Below are positions 4,199 through 32,455 of a DNA stretch of 34,979 bases, in pieces. Each line of letters opens with the position of its first letter. Within the stretch, counting starts at the first letter, position 1. The notes below the pieces were generated by a model, which made no database searches, was not told the DNA's origin, and saw only the letters and a list, made by a program, of their open reading frames with translations. The position numbers and the translations under genes are program-made. This DNA comes from a bacterium HR23 (lineage in GTDB: Bacteria > Chloroflexota > Dehalococcoidia > Lucifugimonadales > HRBIN23): assembly GCA_002923335.1 (NCBI GenBank), contig BEHZ01000001.1:1-34979 (forward strand). Direction: 5' to 3'.

Positions 4199-5335
4199 CT
4201 ACGGCCACTGGACGAACATGGGCATCACGACATGGACATACTCGGGCGACGCCTCCCCCCCGATGGGGCGGAAGACCCCAGGGCTGGAGGGGGTGTTCAC
4301 ACCCATGCTGACTTTCTCCCCGCCGATGACCGAGAGGACATCCTGCAGATATCGGCTGTTGAAGGCGATGCGGGCCGGTTCCCCCTCTATGGACGCCTCC
4401 AGTTCCCCGCTGGCGCTCCCCTCCTCTTCCATCCCCGCCAGCACCGTAACCTTCCCCGGTGTCCCCGGCTCCAGAAGGATGCGCACGATGTTGCTCCCGG
4501 TGCGGGCGAAAGCAGAGCCTGCCTTCACTGTCTGGAGGAGACGCTGGCAGTCCAGAACCGCACGGGTCTGGCTGGACTGGGGGATCAACTGGCGGAAGTT
4601 GGGGAAGGTGCCCTGGAGCAGGTGGCTGTATACCTCTACTCCCTTCAGGCGGAAGAGGATGCCGGAGCCATCCCTGGCGATGTGGAGGGTTACCGGCTCC
4701 TCGCTGTCCTCCAGCAGGTTGGCCACCTCTTTCAGGGTTTTCGCCGGCACCACCACCCCCACAGGCGTCTCCACCGGTTGGGCCAAGGTGCCTGTGTGCA
4801 CCGCAAGACGGAAGCCGTCCGCCGCCGCCATGGTGAAGCGCTCCCCTTCCAGTTCGGTGCGGATGCCCGTCAGGATGGGGCGGGATTCGTCGGTGGCGGC
4901 GGCGAAGGCCACCTGCTCAATAGCCCTCCCCAGGGCCTTCTGGCTCACCAGGGCGGTGGTGCCCTCCTTCACGGTGGGCAGGGGGGGATAGGTTTCCGCC
5001 TCCACTCCCCTCAGCATGGCCTTCAGCCAGGCGCAGGAGACCTGTATCCCCAAGGGGCGCTGGACGCTGGATAGGTCCACCCGCTCGGGGGGGAGTTGGG
5101 CCACGAAGTCCCGCAGGCGCTGGGCGGGAACCGCAATGCCCCCCTCCTCCTCCACCTTCGCCCCCACCCACACGGTAATGGCCAGTTCCAGATTGGTGGC
5201 CGTGAGGCGAAGTCGGCCCTCCTCGGTCCGGAGGAGGATGTTCAGCAGAATGTCCTCGGAGGGACGGCTGGGGACCGCCCGTGCCACCGTGCTCAGGGCC
5301 TTGGCCAGGTTCTCTTGCAGGCAGGAGACCTTCAT
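4199..5335 (-). CDS. dnaN: DNA polymerase III beta subunit (sliding clamp)
   Basis: About 378 aa with a three-domain clamp-like sequence (MKVSCLQENLAKALSTVARAV..., LRLTATNLELAI, FNSRYLQDVL, PMFV). ATG at 5335 is preceded by GGGAG with 7-nt spacing; the ATG at 5350 lacks an SD. Confidence 0.9.
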   Translation of the reverse strand: MKVSCLQENLAKALSTVARAVPSRPSEDILLNILLRTEEGRLRLTATNLELAITVWVGAKVEEEGGIAVPAQRLRDFVAQLPPERVDLSSVQRPLGIQVSCAWLKAMLRGVEAETYPPLPTVKEGTTALVSQKALGRAIEQVAFAAATDESRPILTGIRTELEGERFTMAAADGFRLAVHTGTLAQPVETPVGVVVPAKTLKEVANLLEDSEEPVTLHIARDGSGILFRLKGVEVYSHLLQGTFPNFRQLIPQSSQTRAVLDCQRLLQTVKAGSAFARTGSNIVRILLEPGTPGKVTVLAGMEEEGSASGELEASIEGEPARIAFNSRYLQDVLSVIGGEKVSMGVNTPSSPGVFRPIGGEASPEYVHVVMPMFVQWP

Positions 5336-5431
5336 GCCCACGCTCCCCATTCTTTGGGAATAGTATAAAGGGTATGTTGACGGGAGGAAAGGGGCTCTCC
5401 CGCCGGCGTGGCGCAGGTCGCCCAGAGGGGC

Positions 5432-5959
5432 CTATGCCTGCGGAGGGGGCTCCACCTTGTCCCGACGGGTCAGGTAAGTGTCCCACCAGGGTTCAGTGGC
5501 CTCCCCCTCCTCGGGCGGGGCGTGGAGGATGCGCTGGACCTCCCGGACGGTGAAGTCCACCAACTCGGCGCACCGATAGACCCGCTGGGGGTTAGCGAAA
5601 TCCCGCTCCCAGGGGGCGGTGAGGGTCCCGCAGGTGATGGTGCCGAAGCGCTTCCGGAAGGCCTCCAGGAAGGCACGGGCGCGGGCATAGGCGGAACGGG
5701 GGGCGGTGCCGGTAGGCTCGGTGCTCCCGAAGGCCATCCCCAGGGCCATGGCCGCCGCACTCACACACCCGCACATCCCCTTGCTGAGGGCAACCCCGCC
5801 CCCGAAGGAGGTGGCCGCCCGCACCATCTCCTCCGGGATAGGAAGAACCTTCGCCTCCTTCAGACCAAGGAGGACCGCCTGGGCTCAGTTGTAATACCCC
5901 CGGACAAAGATGTCCACCGGATAGGTGCGCTTGGACGGGTCCCGGTAAGCCTCGGCCAT
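5432..5959 (-). CDS. C_GCAxxG_C_C family redox protein with an in-frame TGA (5885-5887) at the first conserved Cys; candidate selenoprotein (alternatively a nonsense pseudogene)
   Basis: The track ORF 5432..5827 starts at MVRAATSFGGG and lacks the family's first motif. The same frame continues upstream: ATG at 5959 (SD GGGAGG 5 nt upstream) gives MAEAYRDPSKRTYPVDIFVRGYYN-TGA-AQAVLLGLKEAKVLPIPEEMVRAATSFGGG. The remaining family motifs are present (GMCGCVSAAAMALG, ITCGTL, YRCAELV). Confidence 0.65.
5854..5887 (-). promoter_or_regulatory. Candidate bacterial SECIS element: UGA followed by a hairpin CCUCCUU-GGUCUG-AAGGAGG
   Basis: On the minus-strand RNA a perfect 7-bp stem (5867-5873 with 5854-5860) closes a 6-nt loop GGUCUG (5861-5866). 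The stem starts 11 nt after the UGA. Counting the U of UGA as 1, the loop GGU falls at positions 22-24. Confidence 0.55.
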
Positions 5960-6064
5960 TTTCCCCTCCCCATCTGGGACATGCCCTCCCCTGTGCAAGA
6001 GGATGGGCAAAAGCGGGGGGAAAGTCAAGGGCCATGTGGCCCATTGGGGGAGGCGGGTAGTCCC

Positions 6065-7030
6065 CTAAAGAGCCTGGGAGGGGCCAACGGCCTGGGGCGA
6101 GAGGGTGTCCGAGGGGCGCACCGTCACGGGGATACGTTTCAAGGCTTGGTCCCACATCCGGCAGAAGGCACACACCACCCCTGTGGTGGGCTGTCCGCAC
6201 CGCTGGCACTCCCCTACCGTTTGCCGGTCGGCCTGCGCCAGCAAGGGACGCAGGCGTTCCAGGAACCCCGCCACCAGTTGCTGTTTGCTCCCCGGGGAAT
6301 GGAGTTCAATCTGGTTCAGGGCGTCTTTATACAGCAGGGAGCGGGCGCCCTGGGCGTAGGGGCACTCATCGGGGATGTAGTCAATGCGCCGGAGGAGGGC
6401 GTAACTGACCGTCTCCTTCTCGGTCATCAGGAAGAGGGGCTTCACCCGCTTCACCAGACGGGGGTGGTCGGCCTCCAGCACGGGGCTTTGACGGGCCAGG
6501 GCATCCGTCTGCCAGTGGAGAAGGTTCCCCAGGAGAGTGGCCGCTTCGTCGTCCAGGTTATGGCCGGTGGCCACCACGGTGAAGCCGTTCTCCAGAGCAA
6601 CCCGGTTGGTGATGTAGCGCTTGGAAAGCCCACATCCCGAACAGGGCACACGGCGCAGGGCCTTGGCCAGTTGCGGCACCCCCAGTCCATAGGCCTCCTC
6701 CAGATTCACCACGAGGAGGGAGAGGCCGCGGGAGCGGGCGAAGGCCTCCGTTTTGGCCTGGGAGAGGTCCGAATAGGCACCAATGCCCAGGTGGATGTGC
6801 AGGCCGGTGGGGCGATACCCCAGGCGCAGGAGCACCTCCCACAGGGTAAGGCTGTCCTTCCCCCCGGAGACCGCCACCAGGATGCGGTCCTGGGGGGTGA
6901 ACATCCTCCAGCGCTCAATGGTGCGCTGGACCTGGCGCTCAAAGAACTCCAGGTAATGGACGGCGCAGAAGGCGGTGTTGTGCCGGCGCAGGTCCACCGA
7001 CGCCTTCTGCCCGCACTTCTGGCACTTCAC
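6065..7030 (-). CDS. ttuA: tRNA 2-thiolation protein, TtuA-like PP-loop ATPase with N- and C-terminal Cys fingers
   Basis: Contains CQKCG...FCAVHY, the PP-loop VAVSGGKDSL, CSGCGLSKRY, GHNLDDEA, and C-terminal CQRCG...CAFC. GTG at 7030 overlaps the upstream TGA (GTGA), indicating translational coupling. The track extension to 7087 overlaps ttuB. Confidence 0.8.
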   Translation of the reverse strand: MKCQKCGQKASVDLRRHNTAFCAVHYLEFFERQVQRTIERWRMFTPQDRILVAVSGGKDSLTLWEVLLRLGYRPTGLHIHLGIGAYSDLSQAKTEAFARSRGLSLLVVNLEEAYGLGVPQLAKALRRVPCSGCGLSKRYITNRVALENGFTVVATGHNLDDEAATLLGNLLHWQTDALARQSPVLEADHPRLVKRVKPLFLMTEKETVSYALLRRIDYIPDECPYAQGARSLLYKDALNQIELHSPGSKQQLVAGFLERLRPLLAQADRQTVGECQRCGQPTTGVVCAFCRMWDQALKRIPVTVRPSDTLSPQAVGPSQAL

Positions 7031-7230
7031 CCCTGCCCTCCCGAAATGGCCGAGACGACCTCCACCGTGTCCGTCTCCTGGAGCCACTCGTCGCTGGTGA
7101 GGAGGTCGTCGCCCCGGATGACCACGTGGGATTCGGGGTTGAGACCGAGTTCCCGCAGGAGGTCTGCCACACGGCGGCGGCCATGGACTTCCAGTTCCTG
7201 GCGCCGGGGGTTACGGATGATGACCTTCAT
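7027..7230 (-). CDS. ttuB: ThiS/MoaD-fold ubiquitin-like sulfur carrier (TtuB-like), C-terminus ...SAISGGQG
   Basis: 67 aa starting from ATG at 7230 (MKVIIRNPRRQELEV...). It has the small beta-grasp carrier pattern, sits immediately upstream of ttuA and is coupled to it. A Gly-Gly is present but is followed by Q-G before the TGA stop. Confidence 0.7.
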   Translation of the reverse strand: MKVIIRNPRRQELEVHGRRRVADLLRELGLNPESHVVIRGDDLLTSDEWLQETDTVEVVSAISGGQG

Positions 7231-7274
7231 AGTCTCGCACTGCCGGCCCAGGGGCGTGGGCACTGCCCCAGTCC

Positions 7275-7283
7275 ATCATACCA
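7275..7283 (-). promoter_or_regulatory. Candidate extended -10 promoter element TGGTATGAT upstream of ttuB
   Basis: The minus strand reads GTGTGGTATGAT, 4 nt after the MFS stop and about 45 nt upstream of the ttuB ATG. No convincing -35 was found. Confidence 0.3.
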
Positions 7284-7286
7284 CAC

Positions 7287-8576
7287 CTACCCCACCACCT
7301 TCCCTGCCTTCCAGCGCACCAGCAGGGCGAAGGTCAGCGCCAGCAGGGCGTTGACAGCAAACACCGGCCGCAGGCCCACCGCGCCGGCCACCAACCCCCC
7401 CACCAACGGCCCCAACCAGAAGCCCATGGAGTTGGCGCTCTGCAACAGGCCGTAGGCGGGGCCCATCCGCTCTCTCGGCACTACATACCCCATAAGGGCC
7501 GAGGTCTGGGCAACGCTGAGCCCCTGGCACGTCCCCACCACCACGATGGCGGTAAGCGCCTGCCACGGCTCCCGGGCCAGCAAAAGCCCCACAAACCCTA
7601 CAGCCGACACCAGCGGGGCCAGCACCAGCAGGCGGAGCACGCCTAGCCGTGCCCCCAGTGGCCCCGAAAGATACGCCCCCACCGCCCCCATCACACCCAG
7701 GAGGGCGAAGGCGATCCCCGCCAGGGACGCCTTGGACGCCGGGGCCAATGCCCCCATAAAGAGGGGCAACACCGGGAACATCACATTGGGCACAAACTGC
7801 ACCAGGAAGAGGAGCAGAAGCACCACCGGCATGCCCGGCATGGCCAGGAGGGAGCGGATGTTCTGTAGGATCCCCTGGCGTCCGTCCCGCGGGGGAGGGG
7901 TAAAGTGCTCATCCACCCCGAAGGTAACCACCAACCCCATCAGCGCCAGCACACCCCCCGCCACAAAGAAAGCCCCCCGATACCCCACTCCGTGCACCAG
8001 TAAGGCGCCCAGCAGCGGCCCCACCGTGTTCCCCAGGTTCATCATCCCCTGCAGAACACCTATGGCCATCCCCAGGCGCGGGCGGGGGGCAAGGGATGCC
8101 ACCAGCCCCATCATGGCCGGCACTGCCCCCGTCAACAGCCCCATCAAAAGACGCACCCCGACCAACTGGTAGACATTGGCAACGACCCCCGTGAGCACCA
8201 TCACCAGCGCCCCACCGAAGGTGCCCCGCAGCACATTCTTCTTCCGCCCGTAGCGGTCCCCTAGAGCACCCCAAATGGGGGCGGAGAAGAACATGCTGAT
8301 GCCCCCTACCCCCGCCGCCACGCCCGCCCACAGGGCCGCTTGCCGAGGGCCCTTCACCCCCAGTTCCTGGATGAACAAGGGGATGAAGGGGAAGACGAAA
8401 CTGAACCCCATCACCGTGATGCCCTGCACCAGGGCGGTGATGACCAGGGTGCGATGCCACGCCGACTCGCCCGATACCTTGACCGCCGTCTCCGTTTTGG
8501 CCACCGTGCTCCCCCAAAAGGGAAGGCCCGACACTTCGGCCGGGCCTATCCTTGGCTCGTCGCTCTTCTCTATCAT
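7287..8576 (-). CDS. MFS transporter
   Basis: 429 aa with about 12 hydrophobic segments and the MFS signature-like loop GALGDRYGRKK between TM2 and TM3. ATG start. Confidence 0.8.
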   Translation of the reverse strand: MIEKSDEPRIGPAEVSGLPFWGSTVAKTETAVKVSGESAWHRTLVITALVQGITVMGFSFVFPFIPLFIQELGVKGPRQAALWAGVAAGVGGISMFFSAPIWGALGDRYGRKKNVLRGTFGGALVMVLTGVVANVYQLVGVRLLMGLLTGAVPAMMGLVASLAPRPRLGMAIGVLQGMMNLGNTVGPLLGALLVHGVGYRGAFFVAGGVLALMGLVVTFGVDEHFTPPPRDGRQGILQNIRSLLAMPGMPVVLLLLFLVQFVPNVMFPVLPLFMGALAPASKASLAGIAFALLGVMGAVGAYLSGPLGARLGVLRLLVLAPLVSAVGFVGLLLAREPWQALTAIVVVGTCQGLSVAQTSALMGYVVPRERMGPAYGLLQSANSMGFWLGPLVGGLVAGAVGLRPVFAVNALLALTFALLVRWKAGKVVG

Positions 8577-18269: not shown

Positions 18270-18755
18270 CTATCGGCGGGTTGAGGCCCCCTTACGCCAC
18301 TGGGCGATGCCCTCCTCCAGGGTCATCCACCCCAGGAGGGCGCACTTGATGCGCACCGGGAACTTGCTGACGCCTCGCAGGGCCTCCAGGTCGCCCAACT
18401 CCTCCAACTCCTGAGGCGAAAGGGCCTTCCCCTGCAGCATCTCCCGCACCCGTCGGGAGAGGCCCAGGGCCTCCCCTACCGTCTTCCCCTTGAGCAGTTC
18501 CCCCATCATGGAGGCCGACGCCTGGGAGATGGAGCACCCCCGCCCCTGCACGCCCACCTGGACGATGCGCTCCCCCTCCAGCCGTATCTGCACCGCCACC
18601 TCGTCCCCACAGAAGGGGTTCTGCCCCTCACTGGCGATGTCCGCATGGGGCACCGGCGAGCGGTTCCGGGGGTTGCGGTAATGGTCCAGGATCACCTCCC
18701 GATACAGTTCGTCCAGTTCGTCCATGGGGAAGGCGGGGGAGGTGTCCTGGGCCAT
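18270..18755 (-). CDS. sufU: SufU (NifU-like) Fe-S cluster scaffold / sulfur acceptor
   Basis: Contains LDHYRNPRN, NPFCGDE, GRGCSISQASASMM and KFPVRIKCALL. Confidence 0.9.
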   Translation of the reverse strand: MAQDTSPAFPMDELDELYREVILDHYRNPRNRSPVPHADIASEGQNPFCGDEVAVQIRLEGERIVQVGVQGRGCSISQASASMMGELLKGKTVGEALGLSRRVREMLQGKALSPQELEELGDLEALRGVSKFPVRIKCALLGWMTLEEGIAQWRKGASTRR

Positions 18756-18761
18756 GGCCGC

Positions 18762-20003
18762 CTACCGTGGAGTGCCCACCCGCCCAAAGAAGCGGATGGC
18801 CTTGCGGAGGGCGTCAATGAGGGCGTCTACCTCTTCCTCGGTGTTGTAGAGGTAGAAACTGGCACGGGCGGTGGCCACCACCCCTAGGGAGCGCACCAGG
18901 GGCATAGCGCAATGGTGCCCGGCACGGATGGCGATGCCCTCCCGGTCCAGGAAGGTGCCCAGGTCGTGGGGGTGGATGTCGGGGTGGTGGAAGGAGATAA
19001 CCCCGCCCCTCTGCTCCGCCCGGGGGGGGCCAAAGACCTGCACCTCCTCCAACTCGGCGAAGCGTTGGAGGGCGTAGCGGGTGAGGGCGATTTCGTGCTG
19101 GCGGATGGCGGACATGCCGATGGCCTTCAGGTAGTCAATGGCCACCCCGAAGGCGATGGCGTCGGCGATGTTGGGCGTGCCCGCCTCATAGCGGAAGGGA
19201 GGAGCCTTCCAGGTGGCCCGCTCATAGGTAACCTCCCGCACCATCTCCCCACCCATCAGGAAGGGCTCCATCTCCTCCAGCAGGGGGAGTTTGCCGTAGA
19301 GCACCCCGATGCCCGTTGGCCCCAGCATCTTGTGGGCCGAGAAGGCCAGGAAGTCGCAGTCCAGGGCCTGCACATCCACCGGCATATGGGGGACGCTCTG
19401 GGCGCCGTCCACCAGCACCAGAGCACCCACGCCGTGGGCCAGGCGCACCACCTCCTCCACCGGCACGATGCTCCCCAGCACATTAGACATATGGGTGATG
19501 GCGACCAGGCGCACCCGTGGCGAAAGCAAACGCCGGAAGGCGTCCATATCCAGGAGGCCCTCCGGCGTAAGGGGGGCGATGCGTAGGGTCGCACCCGTTT
19601 CGGCACAGACCCTCTGCCAGGGCACCAGGTTAGAGTGGTGCTCCATAGCGCTGGTGAGCACCTCCTCCCCAGGTTTCAAGTGGTGGCGCGCCCAGGCGGA
19701 GGCCACCAGGTTGATGGCCTCGGTGGTGTTGCGGGTCCAGATAATGCACTCCAGGGAAGGTGCGTTGATGAAGTCCGCTACCTTCTGGCGTGCCTCTTCG
19801 TAGCGCTGGGTGGCCTCCTCCCCCAGGGTGTGCACCGCACGGTGCACATTGGCGTTGTAGCCCTCGTAATACGCCACCAGGGCCTGGATGACCTGGCGCG
19901 GCTTCTGGGAGGTGGCAGCGTTGTCTAGGTAGACCAGGGGCTTGCCGTGCACCTTGCGCTGGAGCACGGGGAAGTCTTGGCGGATGGTGTGGACATCCAG
20001 CAT
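18762..20003 (-). CDS. sufS: Cysteine desulfurase SufS
   Basis: 413 aa with FPVL...VYLDNAATSQKP, the PLP lysine region FSAHKMLGPTGIG, and the active-site loop RAGHHCAMP. Confidence 0.9.
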   Translation of the reverse strand: MLDVHTIRQDFPVLQRKVHGKPLVYLDNAATSQKPRQVIQALVAYYEGYNANVHRAVHTLGEEATQRYEEARQKVADFINAPSLECIIWTRNTTEAINLVASAWARHHLKPGEEVLTSAMEHHSNLVPWQRVCAETGATLRIAPLTPEGLLDMDAFRRLLSPRVRLVAITHMSNVLGSIVPVEEVVRLAHGVGALVLVDGAQSVPHMPVDVQALDCDFLAFSAHKMLGPTGIGVLYGKLPLLEEMEPFLMGGEMVREVTYERATWKAPPFRYEAGTPNIADAIAFGVAIDYLKAIGMSAIRQHEIALTRYALQRFAELEEVQVFGPPRAEQRGGVISFHHPDIHPHDLGTFLDREGIAIRAGHHCAMPLVRSLGVVATARASFYLYNTEEEVDALIDALRKAIRFFGRVGTPR

Positions 20004-20011
20004 GTTGCCCC

Positions 20012-20329
20012 CTAGTCGGGAAGGGCTACCTCTATCTTATCCCCCTGGATGCGGGTCTTGAAGGTCTGGATGGGGCGCACGGCGGGAAGGGCCAGCACCG
20101 CCCCGGTGCGCACATCAAACCGTGCCCCGTGGCGGGGGCATTCTATCGCATAGCCGAAGAGCACCCCCTCCCCCAGGGGGCCACCGTCGTGGGTGCAGAG
20201 GTTCTGGACGGCGAAGAACTGCCCATCCACATTGCATACCGCCAGGGACCTCCCCCCCGCCTGCACCACCCGGGCGGTGCCAGGGGGGATATCACGAGGG
20301 GAGGCGACGGCTATCCACCGCTCGGCCAT
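20012..20329 (-). CDS. Rieske [2Fe-2S] ferredoxin-like protein embedded in the suf operon
   Basis: Rieske ligand motifs CTHDGGPL and CPRHGARF; 105 aa. Confidence 0.85.
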   Translation of the reverse strand: MAERWIAVASPRDIPPGTARVVQAGGRSLAVCNVDGQFFAVQNLCTHDGGPLGEGVLFGYAIECPRHGARFDVRTGAVLALPAVRPIQTFKTRIQGDKIEVALPD

Positions 20330-20332
20330 AGG

Positions 20333-21679
20333 CTACCCTCCCTTGGAGGCGTCGGGAGTCTGCATCTTCCGGTGGATAAAGGCCCAAATGCGCTCCCTCA
20401 GCCAGGGGGTAGGAATGCGCTGGGCCAGGGGGTCAAAGAAGCCCTCCACCAGAATGCGCCTGGCCTCTGGCAAGGGGATGCCCCGGCTCTGGAGGTAGAA
20501 GAGGTGCTCCTCATCCACAGGGCCGACGCTGGCAGCGTGGGAGCACCGCAGGTCGTCCGCCTCTATCTCCAGGACGGGGATGGAGTCGGCCTTGGGGCGC
20601 CCCCCCAGCAGGAGGTTCTTGTTGGTCTGGAAGGCGTCGGTCTTCACCGCCCCCCGGCGCACCTTCACCGTGCCGTAGTAAACGGCACGGGCAGTATCCT
20701 TCAGGGCGGATTTGTAAAGTAAGTCGCTGGTGGTGGAGGGGGAGTGATGGTCCTGCAGGGTTACCTGGTCAAAGACCTGTTCCCCGTCTCCGAAGAGGAC
20801 CCCCAGGAGGTCGGACCTGCTCCCCTGGCCCTCCAGGTGGTTCTCCAGCACCGTCTTCACGAACCGGCTCCCGAAGTGAATCTGGTAGGTGAGCAGGGAA
20901 GCATCCCGCCCCAGGATGCGACTGCGCTGGAAGGAGAGGAAGAGGGCCTGGGGGCCGAGGCACTGGACACCCGTGTAGCGCACCTGGGAGGCGCTGTCCA
21001 GCAGGAGTTCCACCACGGGGAGCGCCAGAGCCGGCCCCTCCCCCTCCTGCCAGTAGTCCTCCACGATGGTGGCCGACGCCCCCTCCTCAGCCACGATGAG
21101 GGTGTGGGGGAAGAGGGCCCCCTGGGGTCGGGCGAGGATGTGGAGGAGGTGGATGGGCCGTTCCACCTGGGCGTTGCGGGGCAGGTAGATGAACACCCCC
21201 CCATTGCGGAAGGCGGACGCCATAGCGGTGAAGCGGTTCTCGGTGGGGGCAATGGCCTTGCCGAGGTAGGTCTGCACCAGGGAGGGGCGCTGGCGCAGGG
21301 CCTCCTCCAGGGGCATCACCACCACCCCCGCCCTCTCCACTGCCGGGGAGAGGAGATGGCGAAGGGTGTGCCCCTCGGCCTGCACCAATAGGGCATCATA
21401 CTCTTTGCCGGGGCGCAGGAGGGTGCGGGCGGTGCCCAGGGTGCGCCGACGGGGGGCGTCCCCGTCGGGCTGGAAGGCTTCGTAGGGCAAGGAGGCCACA
21501 TCGGTCCGACGCCACCACTCGTGGGAAGGAGGCGGGAAGGGGGTCTGCTGGTATGCGTGGAAAGCGTCTAAACGGGCGTGAAGCGCCCAGCCCGGCTCTC
21601 CCCAGCGGGCAGACAGCCGTCGCACCGCCTCTTCGGTGAGGCGGGAGAGAGGGCGCTGGGTAAGGGCGACATCGCTCAT
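20333..21679 (-). CDS. sufD: Fe-S cluster assembly protein SufD
   Basis: 448 aa and SufB/D-fold (e.g. FQTNKNLLL...ADSIPVLEIEADDLRCSHAASVGPVDEE.LFYLQSRGI). It sits immediately downstream of sufB. Confidence 0.85.
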   Translation of the reverse strand: MSDVALTQRPLSRLTEEAVRRLSARWGEPGWALHARLDAFHAYQQTPFPPPSHEWWRRTDVASLPYEAFQPDGDAPRRRTLGTARTLLRPGKEYDALLVQAEGHTLRHLLSPAVERAGVVVMPLEEALRQRPSLVQTYLGKAIAPTENRFTAMASAFRNGGVFIYLPRNAQVERPIHLLHILARPQGALFPHTLIVAEEGASATIVEDYWQEGEGPALALPVVELLLDSASQVRYTGVQCLGPQALFLSFQRSRILGRDASLLTYQIHFGSRFVKTVLENHLEGQGSRSDLLGVLFGDGEQVFDQVTLQDHHSPSTTSDLLYKSALKDTARAVYYGTVKVRRGAVKTDAFQTNKNLLLGGRPKADSIPVLEIEADDLRCSHAASVGPVDEEHLFYLQSRGIPLPEARRILVEGFFDPLAQRIPTPWLRERIWAFIHRKMQTPDASKGG

Positions 21680-21709
21680 AACGGGTGTGCTCCTGTGAGG
21701 AATGAAGGG

Positions 21710-23113
21710 TTAGCCGACCGCCCCTGAGAGTTGCAGTTCAATGAGGCGGTTCATCTCCACGGCGTATTCCATGGGCAGGGTTTTGGTAAACGGCTCAATG
21801 AAGCCGTTGACCACCATGGCCATGGCCTCCGTCTCGGTGAGGCCACGGCTCATGAGGTAGAAGAGTTGTTCCTCGCTGATCTTGGCCACCACCGCCTCGT
21901 GGCCGATGGACACATCCTCCTCCGCCACCTCAATGTAGGGATAGGTGTCGGAGCGGGAGTAGGGGTCCAGGATGAGGGCATCGCACCGCACCATAGACTT
22001 GGCGCCCTTGGCCCCCTCGTAAATCTTCAGGAGGCCCCGGTAGGAGGTGCGCCCCCCGCCCTTGGAGATAGACTTGCTGAGGATGGTAGAGGAGGTGTAG
22101 GGGGCCACATGGATGGCCTTGCCCCCGGCGTCCTGGTGCTGGCCGGTGTTGGCGAAGGCAACGGAAAGGATATCCCCCCGTGCCCCCTTGCCCATCAGGA
22201 AGACGGAGGGGTATTTCATGGTAACTTTGGAGCCCAGGTTGGCGTCTATCCACTCCACCACCGCCTCTTCGTAGGCCACCGCGCGCTTGGTAACCAGGTT
22301 ATAAACATTGAGGGACCAGTTCTGGATGGTGGTGTAGCGCAGGCGTGCCCCCCGCATGGAGATGAGTTCCACCACCGCGCTGTGAAGGGAGTCTTTGGAG
22401 TAGACGGGGGCGGTGCACCCCTCCACATAGTGGACGAAGGAGCCCTCGTCGGCGATGATGAGGGTGCGCTCAAACTGCCCCATGGCCTCGGCGTTGATAC
22501 GGAAGTAGGCCTGGAGGGGGATCTCCACCCGCACCCCGGGGGGCACATAGATGAAGGAGCCTCCGCTCCACACGGCGCTGTTGAGGGCGGCGAACTTGTT
22601 GTCGGCGGGGGGGATAACGGTGCCGAAGAAACGACGCACCAGGTCGGGATACTCCCGCACCGCCGTGTCGGTATCCACGAAGATAACGCCCTTCTTCTTC
22701 AGGTCCTCCCGGAGGGAGTGGTAGACCACCTCGGATTCATACTGGGCACCTACCCCGGCCAGGAACTTGCGCTCCGCCTCGGGGATACCCAGTCGGTCAA
22801 AGGTCTTCTTGATGTAGTCGGGGACCTCGTCCCAGGAGTGCCCCTGGCGCTCTGTGGGCTTCACATAGTAGTGGATCTCGTCGAAGTTGATGGCGGAGAG
22901 GTCGGCCCCCCAGGTGGGCATGGGCTTCTGGAAGAAGACCTCCAGGGCACGGAGGCGGAAGTCCCGCATCCACTGGGGCTCCCCCTTCATATCGGAGATC
23001 TCCTCCACCACCCGGCGGGAGAGGCCGGGCTTGGCCTTGTAGACATACAGTTCGGGGTCCCGGAAGCCGTATTTATAAGGGCCGAGGTCAATCTGTGGGC
23101 GTGCGGTGGTCAT
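21710..23113 (-). CDS. sufB: Fe-S cluster assembly protein SufB
   Basis: 467 aa from ATG 23113 (SD AGGAG upstream), starting [17 protein letters not shown]... and containing [14 protein letters not shown] and [31 protein letters not shown]. The track's 88-codon upstream extension overlaps sufC and is rejected. Confidence 0.9.
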
Positions 23114-23126
23114 GGCTCTCTCCTTT

Positions 23127-23891
23127 CTATGCCTGGGAGCGCACCTGCTGAAGGACCTGTTCGTAGCCCCGTGCCTCCAGTTCCTCGGCCAGTTCGGGGC
23201 CGCCGGAGCGGACGATGCGCCCCTCCGCCAGGATGTGCACGAAACGGGGGCGCACATAGCGCAGGATGCGCTGGTAGTGGGTGATGAGCAGGATGGCGTT
23301 GGCCGGGGAGGCGAAGGCGTTGATGCCCTCGGCCACCACCCGGAGAGCGTCAATATCCAGACCCGAATCCGTTTCATCCAGCACGGCGACGGTCGGCTGG
23401 AGGACGGTGAGTTGCAGGATCTCGGCCCGCTTCTTCTCGCCCCCCGAGAAGCCCTCGTTCACATAGCGCTGGAGGAAGGACTCGTCCATCTTCAGCAGGT
23501 TGGCCTGTTCCCGAATGCGCCGGCGGAACTGGACCACAGGGAGGTCCTGGCCACGAAGGGCCCGGCCGGCCGTGCGCAGGAGGTTGAACAAGGTAACCCC
23601 CGGCACCGCCACAGGATACTGGAAGGCCAGGAAGAGGCCTTTGCGTGCCCGTTCATCGGCGGTTGCCGAGGTGATGTCCTCCCCCTTCAGAAGGATGCGC
23701 CCCTGGGTAACCTGATACTTGGGGTGGCCCATAATGGCGTAGGCCAGGGTGCTCTTGCCGGAGCCGTTGGGCCCCATGAGGGCGTGCACCTCGCCGGGGT
23801 AAAGGGCCAGGGAAACGCCCCTGAGAATCTCCTTGCCTTCCACCGCCACATGGAGGTCTTCTATCTGCAGGAGGGGAGACAGAGTGGTCAT
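23127..23891 (-). CDS. sufC: SufC ABC-type ATPase
   Basis: Walker [13 protein letters not shown] signature FSGGEKKR, Walker [13 protein letters not shown]. Confidence 0.9.
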
Positions 23892-24529: not shown

Positions 24530-25006
24530 ATGGAGAGCCCCATCCCCCCTGCCCTCCCGCAGGGGAGGCGCTGGCCTCCCCTGCTGGCCCTGGTCCTTTG
24601 GCTGGGGGTTATCCTGGGCGTCTCCTCCTGGCCACGCCCTGCCCTGCCGGTAGAGCCTCCCTCTTTCCTGCGCCAGGCCCTGGCCCCTACGGTGCACTTC
24701 CTTCTCTACGGCGTCCTGGGGCTGTTGGCCTCCTGGGCCCTGAAACGGGGGGGGCCTCAGCGGATTCCGCCCCTTCTCACCGTCGCCGGCGTGGGGCTGT
24801 TCGGGTTCCTGTGGGGGATGCTGGACGAGTGGTATCAGGGCTTTATCCCGGGGCGGGATTCCTCGTGGGGGGACGTGGCGGTGGATGTGGTGGGGGCCAT
24901 CGCTGGGGGCGTGGCCTTCGCCTGGCTCGTGGCCCGTGGGGGGCGAGGCCACCTCTCCCCCCAACGGTCAGCGCAGGAGCAGGAGCACCACCACCGCCGT
25001 GGCTAG
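24530..25006 (+). CDS. VanZ family membrane protein
   Basis: 158 aa with four hydrophobic segments and the pattern HFLLYGVLGLL...DEWYQGFIPGRDSSWGDVAVDVVGA. Confidence 0.7.
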   Translation: MESPIPPALPQGRRWPPLLALVLWLGVILGVSSWPRPALPVEPPSFLRQALAPTVHFLLYGVLGLLASWALKRGGPQRIPPLLTVAGVGLFGFLWGMLDEWYQGFIPGRDSSWGDVAVDVVGAIAGGVAFAWLVARGGRGHLSPQRSAQEQEHHHRRG

Positions 25007-25933
25007 CCAGAGCCCCCCTGCCACCAGAAGGGGCTTGTCGGTGAAGAGCACCTCCTCTGGGGCCTCCCCCAGGTTGCGGACGTGCACCAGATACAGATAG
25101 CGGAAGAGGCCGAAGAGGACAAAGGGGATGGTGAGCATCATGGCGTGGTTGCGGGGGACATTGGGGGCGGTGAAGGTGTAAAGGGTGTAGGCAATGAGGG
25201 TAGAGGGGGCCACCACCGCCAGGAGTTGGTCCAGCAGGGGGAGGGTGTATTCCCCCAGCACGGGACGCTGCGCGGAGGCGGAGCCCCCCGCCAGGGCCAG
25301 TTCGTTGCGCCGTTTCCCCAGACCGATGAGCAGGGCACCCAGCCCCGTTACCACATACAGCCACGGCGATATGGGAGCCTCCACGGCCACGGCCCCCGCC
25401 ACCGCCCGCAGGATATACCCCACACTCAGCGCCAGCACATCCAGGATGACCAGGCGTTTCAGAACGAAGGTATAGGCGGAGGTGGAGGCCAGGTAGAGGA
25501 GGGCTACCCCGCCGAACCACACCCCCAGGGCGAAGGAGCCGGCTAGCCCTAGAGCAGTCAGCACCAGCACCACCCCATACGCTACCCCCACGGGCAGGGC
25601 ACCCGAGGCGATGGGACGGGAGCGCTTCCGGGGGTGCAAGCGGTCCCGGGGGGCATCCACCGCATCGTTCACCAGGTAGACGGCCGAGGAGAGGAGGCAG
25701 AAGAGGAGAAAGGCCAGAAACGCCCTCCCCAGCAAGAGGCCTGCCTCCCCGGGGGCGGAGGGGGTCCACCGCTCGTGAACGCTGAAGGCCAAGGGGAGGA
25801 AGACCAGGATGTTCTTGGCCCACTGCTTGGGGCGCAAGGACCGCACCAGCGCCCGCGCCACGGCCCCCACCCCCCGCCCAGGGGCGGACGGTAAAAGGGC
25901 ATCGGCCGAGAGATGCGTATCCCCGGTGCGCAT
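24968..25933 (-). CDS. UbiA-family prenyltransferase, decaprenyl-phosphate phosphoribosyltransferase-like
   Basis: Contains LRPKQWAKNILVFLPL and the Asp-rich motif YLVNDAVDAPRDRLHPRKRSRPIASG; polytopic. Its 3' end overlaps the convergent VanZ gene by 39 nt. Confidence 0.75.
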   Translation of the reverse strand: MRTGDTHLSADALLPSAPGRGVGAVARALVRSLRPKQWAKNILVFLPLAFSVHERWTPSAPGEAGLLLGRAFLAFLLFCLLSSAVYLVNDAVDAPRDRLHPRKRSRPIASGALPVGVAYGVVLVLTALGLAGSFALGVWFGGVALLYLASTSAYTFVLKRLVILDVLALSVGYILRAVAGAVAVEAPISPWLYVVTGLGALLIGLGKRRNELALAGGSASAQRPVLGEYTLPLLDQLLAVVAPSTLIAYTLYTFTAPNVPRNHAMMLTIPFVLFGLFRYLYLVHVRNLGEAPEEVLFTDKPLLVAGGLWLATAVVVLLLLR

Positions 25934-29884: not shown

Positions 29885-32455
29885 TTACCTCCCGGCGGGG
29901 ACGGGGGCGGGCGCCTCGGGGCGCACCGCCACCGCACCGCCCTTGTAGCGTCGGCGCACCGGGGGCACAAACCCCCGCATGCGTTGGGTGTTCAGGGTAA
30001 CGGAGAGGGAACTGGTGGCCATCAACAGGGCAGCCAGTTCGGGGCTGACCACCTGGCCCAGGAAGGGGTAGAGCAGGCCCATGGCCAGGGGGATGGCCAG
30101 GGTGTTGTAGGCGAAGGCCCAGAAGAGGTTCTGCTTCACCAGGCGCATGGTGGCCCGTGCCACCTGCAGGGCGGAGACCACATCCAGGGGGTCATCCCGC
30201 ACCAGGATGATGTGGCCCGTCTCCTTGGCCACATCGGTGCCGGCGCCCATGGCTATCCCCACATCCGCCTGGGCCAGGGCGGGGGCGTCGTTGATGCCGT
30301 CCCCCACCATAGCCACCCGGTAGCCCTGCTCCTGCAGGCGCTGGATTTCCCGTGCCTTGTCGCCGGGGAGCACCTCGGCCAGCACCCGCTGGATGCCCAG
30401 TTTCTGGGCAATAGCCTGGGCGGTCCGGCGGTTGTCGCCCGTGAGCATGGCCACCTGGATACCCATGCGCTGGAGTTCCCGCACCGCCAGGGGAGCGGTC
30501 TCCCGCAAGGTATCCGCCACAGCGATGACCCCCACCGCCTTCCCATCCACCGCCAGGAACATCACCGTCTTTCCCTCCCCTTCCAGGCGCTCGGCATCGG
30601 CCAGTAAGGGGTCGCAGGCGATGCCCCGCTCGTGCAGGAGCCGGCGGTTGCCCAGGAGGACGACGCGCCCCTCTATACGAGCCTCCACCCCTCGGCCGGG
30701 GAGAGCCTGGAAACCTTCGGGGTCGGGCAGGGCGAGGCCCCTCTCCTGGGCACGGCGCACGATGGCCTCCCCCAGGGGGTGCTCGGAGCGCCGTTCCGCC
30801 GACCCCGCCAGGCGGAGGGCCTCCGCTTCGGCGATTCCGTGGGTTACCACATCGGTAACCTCCGGCACCCCCTTGGTGAGGGTGCCCGTCTTGTCAAACA
30901 CGACCACCTGCACCTTGGTGGCCGACTCCACCGCATCGCCCCCCTTGAAGAGGACGCCGAACTCGGCCCCTTTGCCGGTGCCGGCCATAATGGCAGCCGG
31001 GGTGGCCAACCCTACGGCGCAGGGGCAGGAGATGACCAGCACGGCGATGGAGACCAGCACCGCGAACCCCACGGCGCTGGCCGAGGCCAGGGTGTAGGGG
31101 GTGAGCATCAGACGGCTGGCGGGGGTGAACCACAGGTCGTAGCCGATGAAATACCAGAAGAGGAAGGTGGCCAGGGCCAGGACATGCACCCAGAAGATAA
31201 ACTGCCCCGCCACCGCATCGGCCAGGCGCTGGAGGGGGGGCTTGGAGGTCTGGGCTTCCTCCACCAGGCGGATGATCTGGGCCAGGGCGGTCTCCCGCCC
31301 CACACGGGTCGCCCGGAAGGTGAAGGCGCCTGTCCTGTTCAGGGTGCCCCCTATCACCTCGTCCCCCGGCCTCTTCTCCACCGGGATGCTCTCGCCGGTG
31401 AGCATGGACTGGTCTACTGCCGAGTAGCCCTCCACCACCACGCCGTCCACCGGCACCTGCTCCCCGGGGCGCACCACCAGCAGGTCGCCCGCCTCCACCT
31501 CCTCCACCGGCACCTCCACCTCCTGGCCGTTGCGGAGCACACGGGCACGGCGGGGCTGAAGGCGCATCAGCCGTCGGATGGCCTCGGAGGCACGCCCACG
31601 GGTAACCGCCTCCAGATAGCGCCCCAGGAGGATGAACCAGGTGAGGAGCGCGGCCGCCTCGTAGAAGGTCGCCATGCGCCCCCCGAAGCCGGCCTCGGGC
31701 CAGAAGGTATTGATAACGGCGATGAGATAGGCTGCGCCGATGCCCGTAGCGTAGAGGAGGTTCATATCGGTAACGCCGTGGCGCAGGCCGTTGAAGGAGT
31801 TGACGAAGAACTGCCGTCCCGGGCCCAGCACCATGGGCGTGGTCAGCAGGAAGAGGACCACTTTGTTATGCAGGACCTCGGGGATGATGCGGGAGAGGCC
31901 CCAGTAGGGCTGGAAGGTGCCCAGCATCACCGCCAGGGCCAGGGGGGTGGCCAGGAGGAGGTTCAGCCTCTGCCGACGCATCTCCTTCTGACGGGCCTCC
32001 CGCTCCCGGTCCACCAGGGGCGCCTCCTCCTCGGGGGCAACGGAAAGGCCCAGGGCCTCCAGGGTCTGCCGGAGGTCGGCCAGGGGGGTGAGGTCGGGGG
32101 CGAACTCCACCTGCACCCGCCCCCCCGAGGCGTGCACCTTCACCTGGGCGACGCCGGGGAGGGCCAGCAGGGCCGGGACGATGCGCCCCTCCTCCTGGGG
32201 CGAGAGGGGGTGGGGCAGGCGAAAGCGGGCGGTCTCCAGCACCACCCCGTAGCCTATCTCCTCCACCGCCTGCCTCATGCTGCGGATGCTGGCGGTGGCG
32301 GGGTCGTATTCCAGATAGGCACGGTTGGTGGCCAGGTTGACGGTAACCCGTGCCACACCCGGGACGCCCTGCAGGGCCTCGGTTACGTGGGCGACGCACG
32401 AGGCACAGGTCATCCCCTGGATGGGCAAGGTAGCCTTGCGGTAGGTTCTCGCCAT
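29885..32455 (-). CDS. copA: Copper-translocating P1B-type ATPase
   Basis: N-terminal HMA domain with GMTCASC and a second HMA-like domain lacking CxxC. TM CPC motif ([11 protein letters not shown]), phosphorylation site DKTGTLT, and hinge GDGINDAP. Confidence 0.9.

Follow-up and report, generated by a model that had tools for sequence, protein, structure and literature searches.

On the minus strand of contig BEHZ01000001.1 from bacterium HR23, the reading frame between positions 5959 and 5432 is crossed by a TGA triplet (5885-5887), and the RNA just beyond this triplet can fold into a hairpin (5854-5873). The question raised by this locus, which lies in a stretch of 34,979 nucleotides (nt; the whole stretch is called the window below), is whether the triplet ends translation or is decoded as selenocysteine (Sec), and whether the hairpin has a part in the outcome. 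The hairpin is probably a bacterial selenocysteine insertion sequence (bSECIS), placed directly 3' of a Sec-UGA in a C-GCAxxG-C-C selenoprotein gene of this Dehalococcoidia-related Chloroflexi bacterium, a reading to which we give a probability of about 0.88. At the level of sequence comparison, the analysis showed that the UGA is conserved together with a stable hairpin, which starts 11-12 nt further on and carries a G-rich loop at positions 22-27 (counted from the U of UGA). It showed in the same terms that selection acts on the RNA pairing itself, which is seen as frozen synonymous sites.

The in-frame UGA and the hairpin that follows it

The gene (5432-5959, minus strand) was delimited by translation through the TGA, by its scores against PF09719 and TIGR01909 and by comparison with the orthologous locus L001 of genome JBKBKV01. 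It opens with the ATG at 5959-5957, ahead of which stands GGGAGGGG, and it is closed by the TAG at 5434-5432; readthrough of the TGA (minus-strand translation) gives 175 residues, one for each sense codon, with the putative Sec as codon 25. The readthrough protein matched PF09719 (C_GCAxxG_C_C) with 88.7 bits (cutoff 27) and the NCBIfam model TIGR01909 with 87.4 bits (cutoff 47.4), and the current NCBIfam name of the latter is 'C-GCAxxG-C-C family (seleno)protein'. Forms 1 and 2 of the C-GCAxxG-C-C family proteins, with MGD8741185.1 and WP_012158890.1 as published genes, are listed among the prokaryotic selenoproteins by two reviews (PMC13188914, PMC9312934). The four conserved Cys positions of the family (C ... 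GC[GA]xxG ... C ... C) are all accounted for, as U25, C63, C110 and C130. Within the clade, the three Cys do not vary, and the first position, with which the UGA aligns, would be Sec here and is Cys in distant homologues (N-U-AQAV against N-C-AQAV). The family is thus the same as that of the published C-GCAxxG-C-C selenoproteins, with Sec predicted in place of a conserved Cys, whereas the window clade (Dehalococcoidia/Chloroflexi) differs from the published forms 1 and 2 by a C-terminal WWxDYLxRRDK extension.

Scans of representative genomes and metagenomes returned 17 loci, and the codon is contained in 15 of them; L017 is incomplete and does not cover it. Two loci are duplicates (L015 of L005, L016 of L004), and the comparison set holds 14 distinct orthologues, or 15 sequences including the window. 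The sources are Dehalococcoidia/Chloroflexi from groundwater, the sea and other places; the GC content of the loci is 0.48-0.68, and the protein identities are 55-89%. TGA stands at the same codon in all 15 sequences. The 12 codons before it keep the frame and encode a conserved peptide (with F6, G9 and N12 invariant) but vary synonymously, which argues that translation runs through the TGA. In L001, the start is identical to that of the window gene and the N-terminus is conserved in frame.

The minus-strand RNA reads UGA GCCCAGGCGGU CCUCCUU GGUCUG AAGGAGG C. The 11-nt spacer GCCCAGGCGGU (5874-5884) encodes Ala-Gln-Ala and runs two bases into the Val codon, and its synonymous sites vary among the orthologues. 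It is followed by the 5' arm CCUCCUU (5867-5873; last Val base, Leu CUC and Leu CUU), the apical loop GGUCUG (5861-5866; Gly GGU and Leu CUG, positions 22-27) and the 3' arm AAGGAGG (5854-5860; Lys AAG, Glu GAG and the first Ala base), all on the minus strand; folding and orthologue codons define the 5' arm, orthologue codons and pair counts the 3' arm. The stem is a perfect one of 7 base pairs (bp) starting at position 15, that is 11 nt past the UGA, and the gap between UGA and loop is 18 nt, so the perfect stem and the 6-nt loop at 22-27 are present as the original prediction had described them.

The 7-bp stem is part of the minimum-energy structure (RNAfold), with a hairpin energy of -10.2 kcal/mol when bare and -11.5 kcal/mol when a G13-C35 pair is added and U14 is bulged. 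The closing pair with a bulged U, which had been proposed from the sequence, can therefore form in the window, with the correction that C35 lies at 5853 (minus strand), one base outside the range first given for the hairpin. In longer contexts, the stem base folds as C11-G36/G12-C35 instead and both G13 and U14 are unpaired; the bulged U14 is one of two near-equivalent options for the stem base. Across seven contexts of up to 450 nt, the pair probability of the window stem is 0.5-0.99. When the first 12 nt are removed, mimicking a ribosome seated on the UGA, the median stem probability is at least 0.9 across the orthologues, with a few lower values in particular contexts. The competing folds found in some orthologues engage the UGA itself, which is located inside the ribosome at the relevant moment. 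The stem is dominant and is not outcompeted by alternative folds, the outcome on which the functional claim had been made to depend.

The hairpin is found in the same place in all 15 sequences, and the inner pairs from 16-33 to 20-29 each form in 14 or 15 of them (RNAalifold and pair counts). The departures are small: in L011 a Glu is changed to Gly (GAG to GGG) and the pairing is retained as U-G, in L008 the loop-closing pair alone is lost, and in L009 the sequence CUU CUA GGC UUG AAG GAU folds in a shifted register with an 8-bp stem and still carries GG at positions 22-23. Orthologue hairpins have loops of 4-8 nt, stems of 7-9 bp and a UGA-loop spacing of 17-19 nt, and the energies of the 14 orthologues range from -8.8 to -13.8 kcal/mol. 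G22 and G23 are invariant (15 of 15), although the Gly codon fixes them as well. At base 24, six sequences have U, four A, three C and two G. Base 27 is a C that pairs with G22 in 13 of the 15, giving a G-N-C-U tetraloop. The G13-C35 pair that leaves U14 bulged is possible in three sequences only; in this role, C35 is specific to the window and L001 rather than conserved. No conserved lower helix was found, since RNAalifold retains the upper hairpin only and the lower pairings of single sequences differ among orthologues. The conserved core of the clade consists of CUCCUU/AAGGAG, a helix of 6 bp, with G22 G23 N C U C/G as its cap, and both the bulged U and U24 fall outside it.

A second, very stable hairpin lies at 5800-5836 (minus strand), where CCCGGAGGAGAUGGUG...CCACCUCCUUCGGG pair within the codons for PEEMVRAATSFG. 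Among the orthologues, it is found in the window and L001 only, which places it outside the conserved element.

Codon choice in the stem and the Cys-containing homologues

A hairpin embedded in codons may be nothing more than a passive by-product of the peptide, here Leu-Leu-Gly-Leu-Lys-Glu, and have no function at the RNA level whatever the TGA means. Several features of the locus fit such an origin: the stem is nearly invariant and does not covary, G22 and G23 are set by the conserved Gly codon, the peptide is kept in all orthologues, and the folding z-score is unremarkable. The synonymous sites offer a measure that separates protein from RNA constraint, and codon entropy at conserved columns was used instead of covariation, the stem being invariant.

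The two stem Leu columns have entropies of 0.35 and 0.70 bits, against 1.64-2.28 bits for the other conserved Leu columns, and the stem Lys and Glu columns have 0 bits, against 0.57-0.98 for other Lys and Glu columns. The loop Gly (1.89 bits), the spacer Ala (1.81) and the spacer Val (1.3) are unconstrained. At the first stem Leu, CTC is used in 14 of 15 sequences, and at the second, CTT in 13 of 15; CTT accounts for 7% of the Leu codons elsewhere in the same genes, whose other conserved Leu columns have four to six codons in use. Lys is AAG in all 15, and Glu is GAG in each of the 13 orthologues that have Glu. Among the 144 synonymous spellings of Leu-Leu..Lys-Glu, CUC CUU..AAG GAG is the sole combination that forms six Watson-Crick pairs, and it is used in 12 of the 15 sequences, where the background expectation is about 1% per sequence. 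With one perfect-pairing spelling available, the stem would be expected to be invariant rather than covarying. The check on stem covariation suggested earlier thus returned almost no classical covariation, but it did uncover a strong pairing constraint at the synonymous sites.

The Cys-containing homologues give a second line of comparison. Seven distant ones, which carry the peptide CAQAVLxAFxD, have no hairpin that qualifies with -7.5 kcal/mol or lower, the best reaching -6.7 kcal/mol. The nearest Cys relatives (P0034-type), obtained by an exhaustive profile search of representative proteins, have the similar peptide C-SEAILLSL(K/Q/R)E. The DNA of three such LLSL(K/Q/R)E homologues was examined, and the hairpin is absent from the homologous site in all three; they are spelled CTC TTG, CTC CTT or TTG TTA together with AAG GAA, CAG GAA or CGC GAG. 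One of the three has a hairpin of -7.7 kcal/mol elsewhere, at a spacing of 35. All ten Cys homologues, including the three with a similar peptide, therefore lack the hairpin at the site, which is what had been anticipated for a true SECIS. A short N-terminal profile aimed at Cys proteins with the same peptide recovered one fragment only from a set of 5.8 billion proteins.

The by-product explanation is already largely refuted and is left with a very small probability. Protein conservation does not explain the frozen third positions, the codon set in use is the unique perfect-pairing choice among 144, and the Cys homologues with the LLSL(K/Q/R)E peptide use other codon sets and have no hairpin at the site. 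The proposal that a functional SECIS is embedded in the VLLGLKE(A) codons is thus well borne out by the conservation of TGA and hairpin together in 15 of 15 sequences, by the frozen codons and by the hairpin-free Cys homologues.

Two observations stand beside this comparison. The distant family members P0036 and P0038 begin with 'MRENAVLDIPDD' and 'LREEGLLEVSDE', just past the position of the hairpin peptide, like truncated Sec forms; possibly they contain Sec and are related to the Cys proteins P0034, P0181 and P0182. Furthermore, the two arms of the window hairpin (5854-5873, minus strand) are spelled like a known duplex, the CCUCCUU arm being the anti-Shine-Dalgarno core of 16S rRNA and the AAGGAGG arm a perfect Shine-Dalgarno (SD) sequence. 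This spelling is fully accounted for by the Leu-Leu and Lys-Glu codon constraints together with the pairing, and ribosome pausing may arise as a side effect once the hairpin is melted.

Relation to known SECIS elements

The bSECIS model (Zhang and Gladyshev 2005, restated in PMC13188914 Fig. 2A) has a loop of 3-9 nt and a stem of 4-16 bp. It further calls for at least one G among the two opening bases of the loop (mostly as GG or GU), a UGA-loop gap of 16-37 nt and an energy at or below -7.5 kcal/mol (PMC13188914). The window element agrees with this model on all four criteria, with its 6-nt loop and 7-bp stem, the GG, the 18-nt gap and -10.2 to -11.5 kcal/mol, and the same holds for 14 of the 15 sequences. 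In L009, the GG comes at loop positions 3-4 after the register shift, and nothing essential differs otherwise.

How often such a hairpin arises by chance was estimated from the 553 TGA triplets of the window, taken in any frame and on both strands. The loose bSECIS model is satisfied after about 10% of them, and a Watson-Crick stem of 7 bp whose loop has an early G occurs after about 2%. A 7-bp stem with a loop starting GG follows two of the 553, namely this element and one antisense inside dnaN. The hairpin in isolation is only mildly improbable, and the comparative evidence is decisive. The dnaN look-alike (5203-5240, plus strand) has a 19-nt spacing, a 7-bp stem CCCTCCT/GGAGGAG... and the loop GGTCCG. 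It is antisense to a solid gene (dnaN, 4199-5350, minus strand) and is thus a chance product, which illustrates the false-positive rate of SECIS calls made from the hairpin only in GC-rich DNA.

The best-studied comparison is the SECIS of Escherichia coli fdhF, in which the upper hairpin bound by SelB spans nt 15-31 and the determinants are U17, G23 and U24 (PMC8659212). The 45-mer that starts at the fdhF UGA (TGACACGGCCCATCGGTTGCAGGTCTGCACC...) matched fdhF with 100% identity in 5419 of the 5426 complete E. coli genomes, and its positions 22-27 read GGTCTG, so the motif had been given correctly in the original prediction. The window and fdhF elements have in common the start of the hairpin 11 nt past the UGA, GGUCUG at 22-27 and G23 in the apical loop. 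Below this level they diverge, since fdhF has a 3-bp apical helix (G19-C28, C20-G27, A21-U26), a GGUC tetraloop and a bulged U17/U18 directly below. The weight that had been placed on the likeness to fdhF is not supported, as U24 varies within the clade and G22 pairs with C27 in most orthologues. Nor is the suggested U bulge supported as a SelB determinant, being available in 3 of 15 sequences and sitting below the helix, unlike U17 of fdhF, which is inside the upper helix. The identity of GGUCUG is largely a coincidence of the Gly-Leu codons GGU CUG in this one genome and does not speak for shared SelB determinants, and the element would not be expected to function with an unmodified E. coli SelB.

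A further comparison is the SECIS of Moorella thermoacetica fdhA, which in the crystal structure with the winged-helix domain of SelB reportedly has an uninterrupted helix and a small loop with GGUC, like the element in the window. Recognition there is said to rely on flipped-out loop bases and to be independent of a bulged U. The Moorella complex reportedly reads a G-U dinucleotide in the loop, from which the clade differs in that the base after G23 is free. It is conceivable, though on balance doubtful, that the SelB of this clade has a recognition mode unlike that of either E. coli (bulged U17 with G23/U24) or Moorella (G-U), in which a single G is read in a G-N-C-U tetraloop on an unbulged helix of 6-9 bp, with no conserved U after the G. 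If so, the element would represent a distinct and very compact class of bSECIS, the helix of which copies the SD/anti-SD duplex CCUCCUU/AAGGAGG exactly.

By analogy with E. coli and Moorella, the hairpin would lie at the mRNA entrance when the ribosome reaches the UGA, and the C-terminal winged-helix domain of SelB, the protein being loaded with guanosine triphosphate (GTP) and Sec-tRNA(Sec), would bind the apical loop. This tethering would bring the ternary complex to the A site, where release factor 2 (RF2) would be outcompeted. The residue added at codon 25, where the redox motif otherwise has its first conserved Cys, would then be selenocysteine, and the ribosome would melt the hairpin and go on to read Val-Leu-Leu-Gly-Leu-Lys-Glu.

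Several points weigh against assigning the element to the SECIS class. Covariation is nearly nil, the stem being almost invariant (RNAalifold, pair counting), and the only pair with G-C/C-G swaps, 15-34, is unpaired in 5 of 15 sequences. The folding z-score against shuffles is -0.5 to -1.0, an energy unexceptional for a GC-rich sequence; the authentic fdhF element itself has a z of only -1.56 against shuffles, so such scores do not discriminate. Rfam gave zero matches for the element at the gathering threshold. Compared with fdhF, the window has an uninterrupted 7-bp helix with its only candidate bulged U (U14) below it, and the U24 determinant of E. coli is not conserved in the clade. Among the 1.84 billion representative proteins searched, no Cys orthologue belonging to the clade was found; the Cys controls are remote, with identities of at most 45%, and their genomes have a lower GC content. 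Lastly, selA, selB, selD and tRNA(Sec) are all absent from the 35-kb window, as judged by a tRNA scan and by scanning the open reading frames (ORFs) for sel genes.

An E-value scan of 5780-5960 against Rfam gave chance microRNA-like matches only (E >0.9), of which the hairpin at 5800-5836 is the source.

Stop codon, other decoding or selenocysteine

The database record at first sight favours a true stop, with a nonsense mutation or a split gene and a downstream part made from an internal codon (ATG 5827), for which AAGGAGG would serve as re-initiation SD sequence. This internal ATG is the start of HRbin23_00005 (P0001, 130 aa; window 5432-5827, minus strand), the protein as deposited, and most database entries for the clade begin at M/VLLGLKE or later, that is after the TGA. 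In a profile search of 1.84 billion representative proteins, E <= 1e-30 was reached by only two 50%-identity clusters, both truncated after the TGA. AAGGAGG is, moreover, a perfect SD consensus, and TGA does terminate UbiA elsewhere in the window.

A pseudogene, however, would decay, whereas the TGA is kept at the identical codon in 15 of 15 sequences and the upstream 12-24 codons are conserved in frame and vary synonymously. The restart codon is not conserved either, as Val is spelled GTG in just 7 of 15 sequences and ATG 5827 corresponds to Leu in most orthologues, and the window has no start codon 5-10 nt past AAGGAGG. The short product would be without the first of the four conserved Cys, and an SD role leaves the constraint on the complementary 5' arm unexplained. 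We therefore consider a true stop highly improbable. Sec decoding, which had been preferred over a nonsense mutation at the outset, agrees with the retention of the TGA, with the in-frame upstream codons and with the catalogued selenoprotein family, and probably applies here.

With Sec-UGA as the preferred reading, the annotation of HRbin23_00005 is truncated. This entry and nearly all others of the clade lack the N-terminal 44 residues (44 codons in HRbin23_00005), including the probable catalytic selenocysteine. In the whole Dehalococcoidia/Chloroflexi clade, with its marine, groundwater and hot-spring members, the redox protein is apparently made only as a selenoprotein. The selenoprotein family was already catalogued and the principles of Sec decoding are unchanged by this finding; what is new is a clade member with a compact SECIS, together with the correction of the annotation. 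The locus also provides a clean example of a SECIS that constrains codon choice, with 1 of 144 spellings almost universal, and can be used as a test case for SECIS predictors.

The use of TGA in the rest of the window bears on how this triplet is read. UbiA (24968-25933, minus strand) ends in a genuine TGA stop, the frames of the confident genes contain zero internal TGA, and their Trp is always TGG. TGA is thus a normal stop in the window, which makes the TGA at 5885-5887 a special case. That the UGA is read by a non-Sec tRNA, for instance as Trp through a local code change or near-cognate suppression, with the hairpin as a generic readthrough stimulator, would suit the TGG beside an intact hairpin in L018, the W of P0043 and the rarity of TGA as a stop (1 of 21 confident genes), but it is the least probable alternative, since TGA is not a general sense codon on the evidence just given, a Trp meaning predicts alternation of TGA and TGG where TGA is kept by 15 of 15 comparison loci, the conserved redox Cys at this position makes a classic Cys/Sec pair, the TGG lies on a contig of 3.3x coverage and may result from faulty sequencing or a recent lesion, and catalogues of selenoproteins already include the family.

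In L018 (ENA ERZ4756919 NODE_18957, coverage 3.3x; gene P0002), the TGG (Trp) occupies positions 1528-1530 at the Sec codon and the hairpin GUGCUCCUUGGCCUCAAGGAGCAG is intact. This codon may stem from an error in sequencing, from a mutation that recently inactivated the gene or from the use of genetic code 4 in translation. The database protein P0043 has W at the Sec position.

TGA as a general sense codon was considered, since only 1 of the 21 confident genes ends in TGA and the ORF continues after UbiA. It was rejected because what follows UbiA is junk rich in Pro, Gly and Arg, because real frames lack internal TGA and because related loci use TGA stops. A second selenoprotein candidate, in which TGA 27214 (minus strand) joins two ORFs, was rejected as well, its upstream part being low-complexity junk.

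The 21 Pfam-supported genes of the window end in TAG (12), TAA (8) and TGA (1), which is unusual at roughly 66% GC. In genomes of such composition, TGA is normally the dominant stop. The orthologous C-GCAxxG-C-C genes use TAG as stop in 11 of 13 cases. The low use of TGA may reflect a weakly active RF2 or, in a lineage that decodes Sec, selection against UGA as a stop. Sec decoding and tRNA(Sec) have been documented in Chloroflexi (PMC1794560, PMC5389517). A tRNA(Sec) with an 8/4 acceptor/T-stem has been reported for this phylum.

The gene is flanked by a TtuA-like PP-loop ATPase and a major facilitator superfamily (MFS) transporter upstream (6065-8576) and by dnaN downstream (4199-5350). The order MFS, TtuA-like, C-GCAxxG-C-C gene and dnaN is found in L001 only (78-84% protein identity), and the gene context is therefore uninformative on function. 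The other orthologues are in different gene contexts, the L018 copy adjoining an FmdE-domain gene. Further along the minus strand lie a SUF iron-sulfur cluster operon (NifU-like, SufS, SufD and SufB; 18270-23377) and the gene of a copper P-type ATPase close to one with a cupredoxin domain (29885-32455), all ordinary housekeeping functions.

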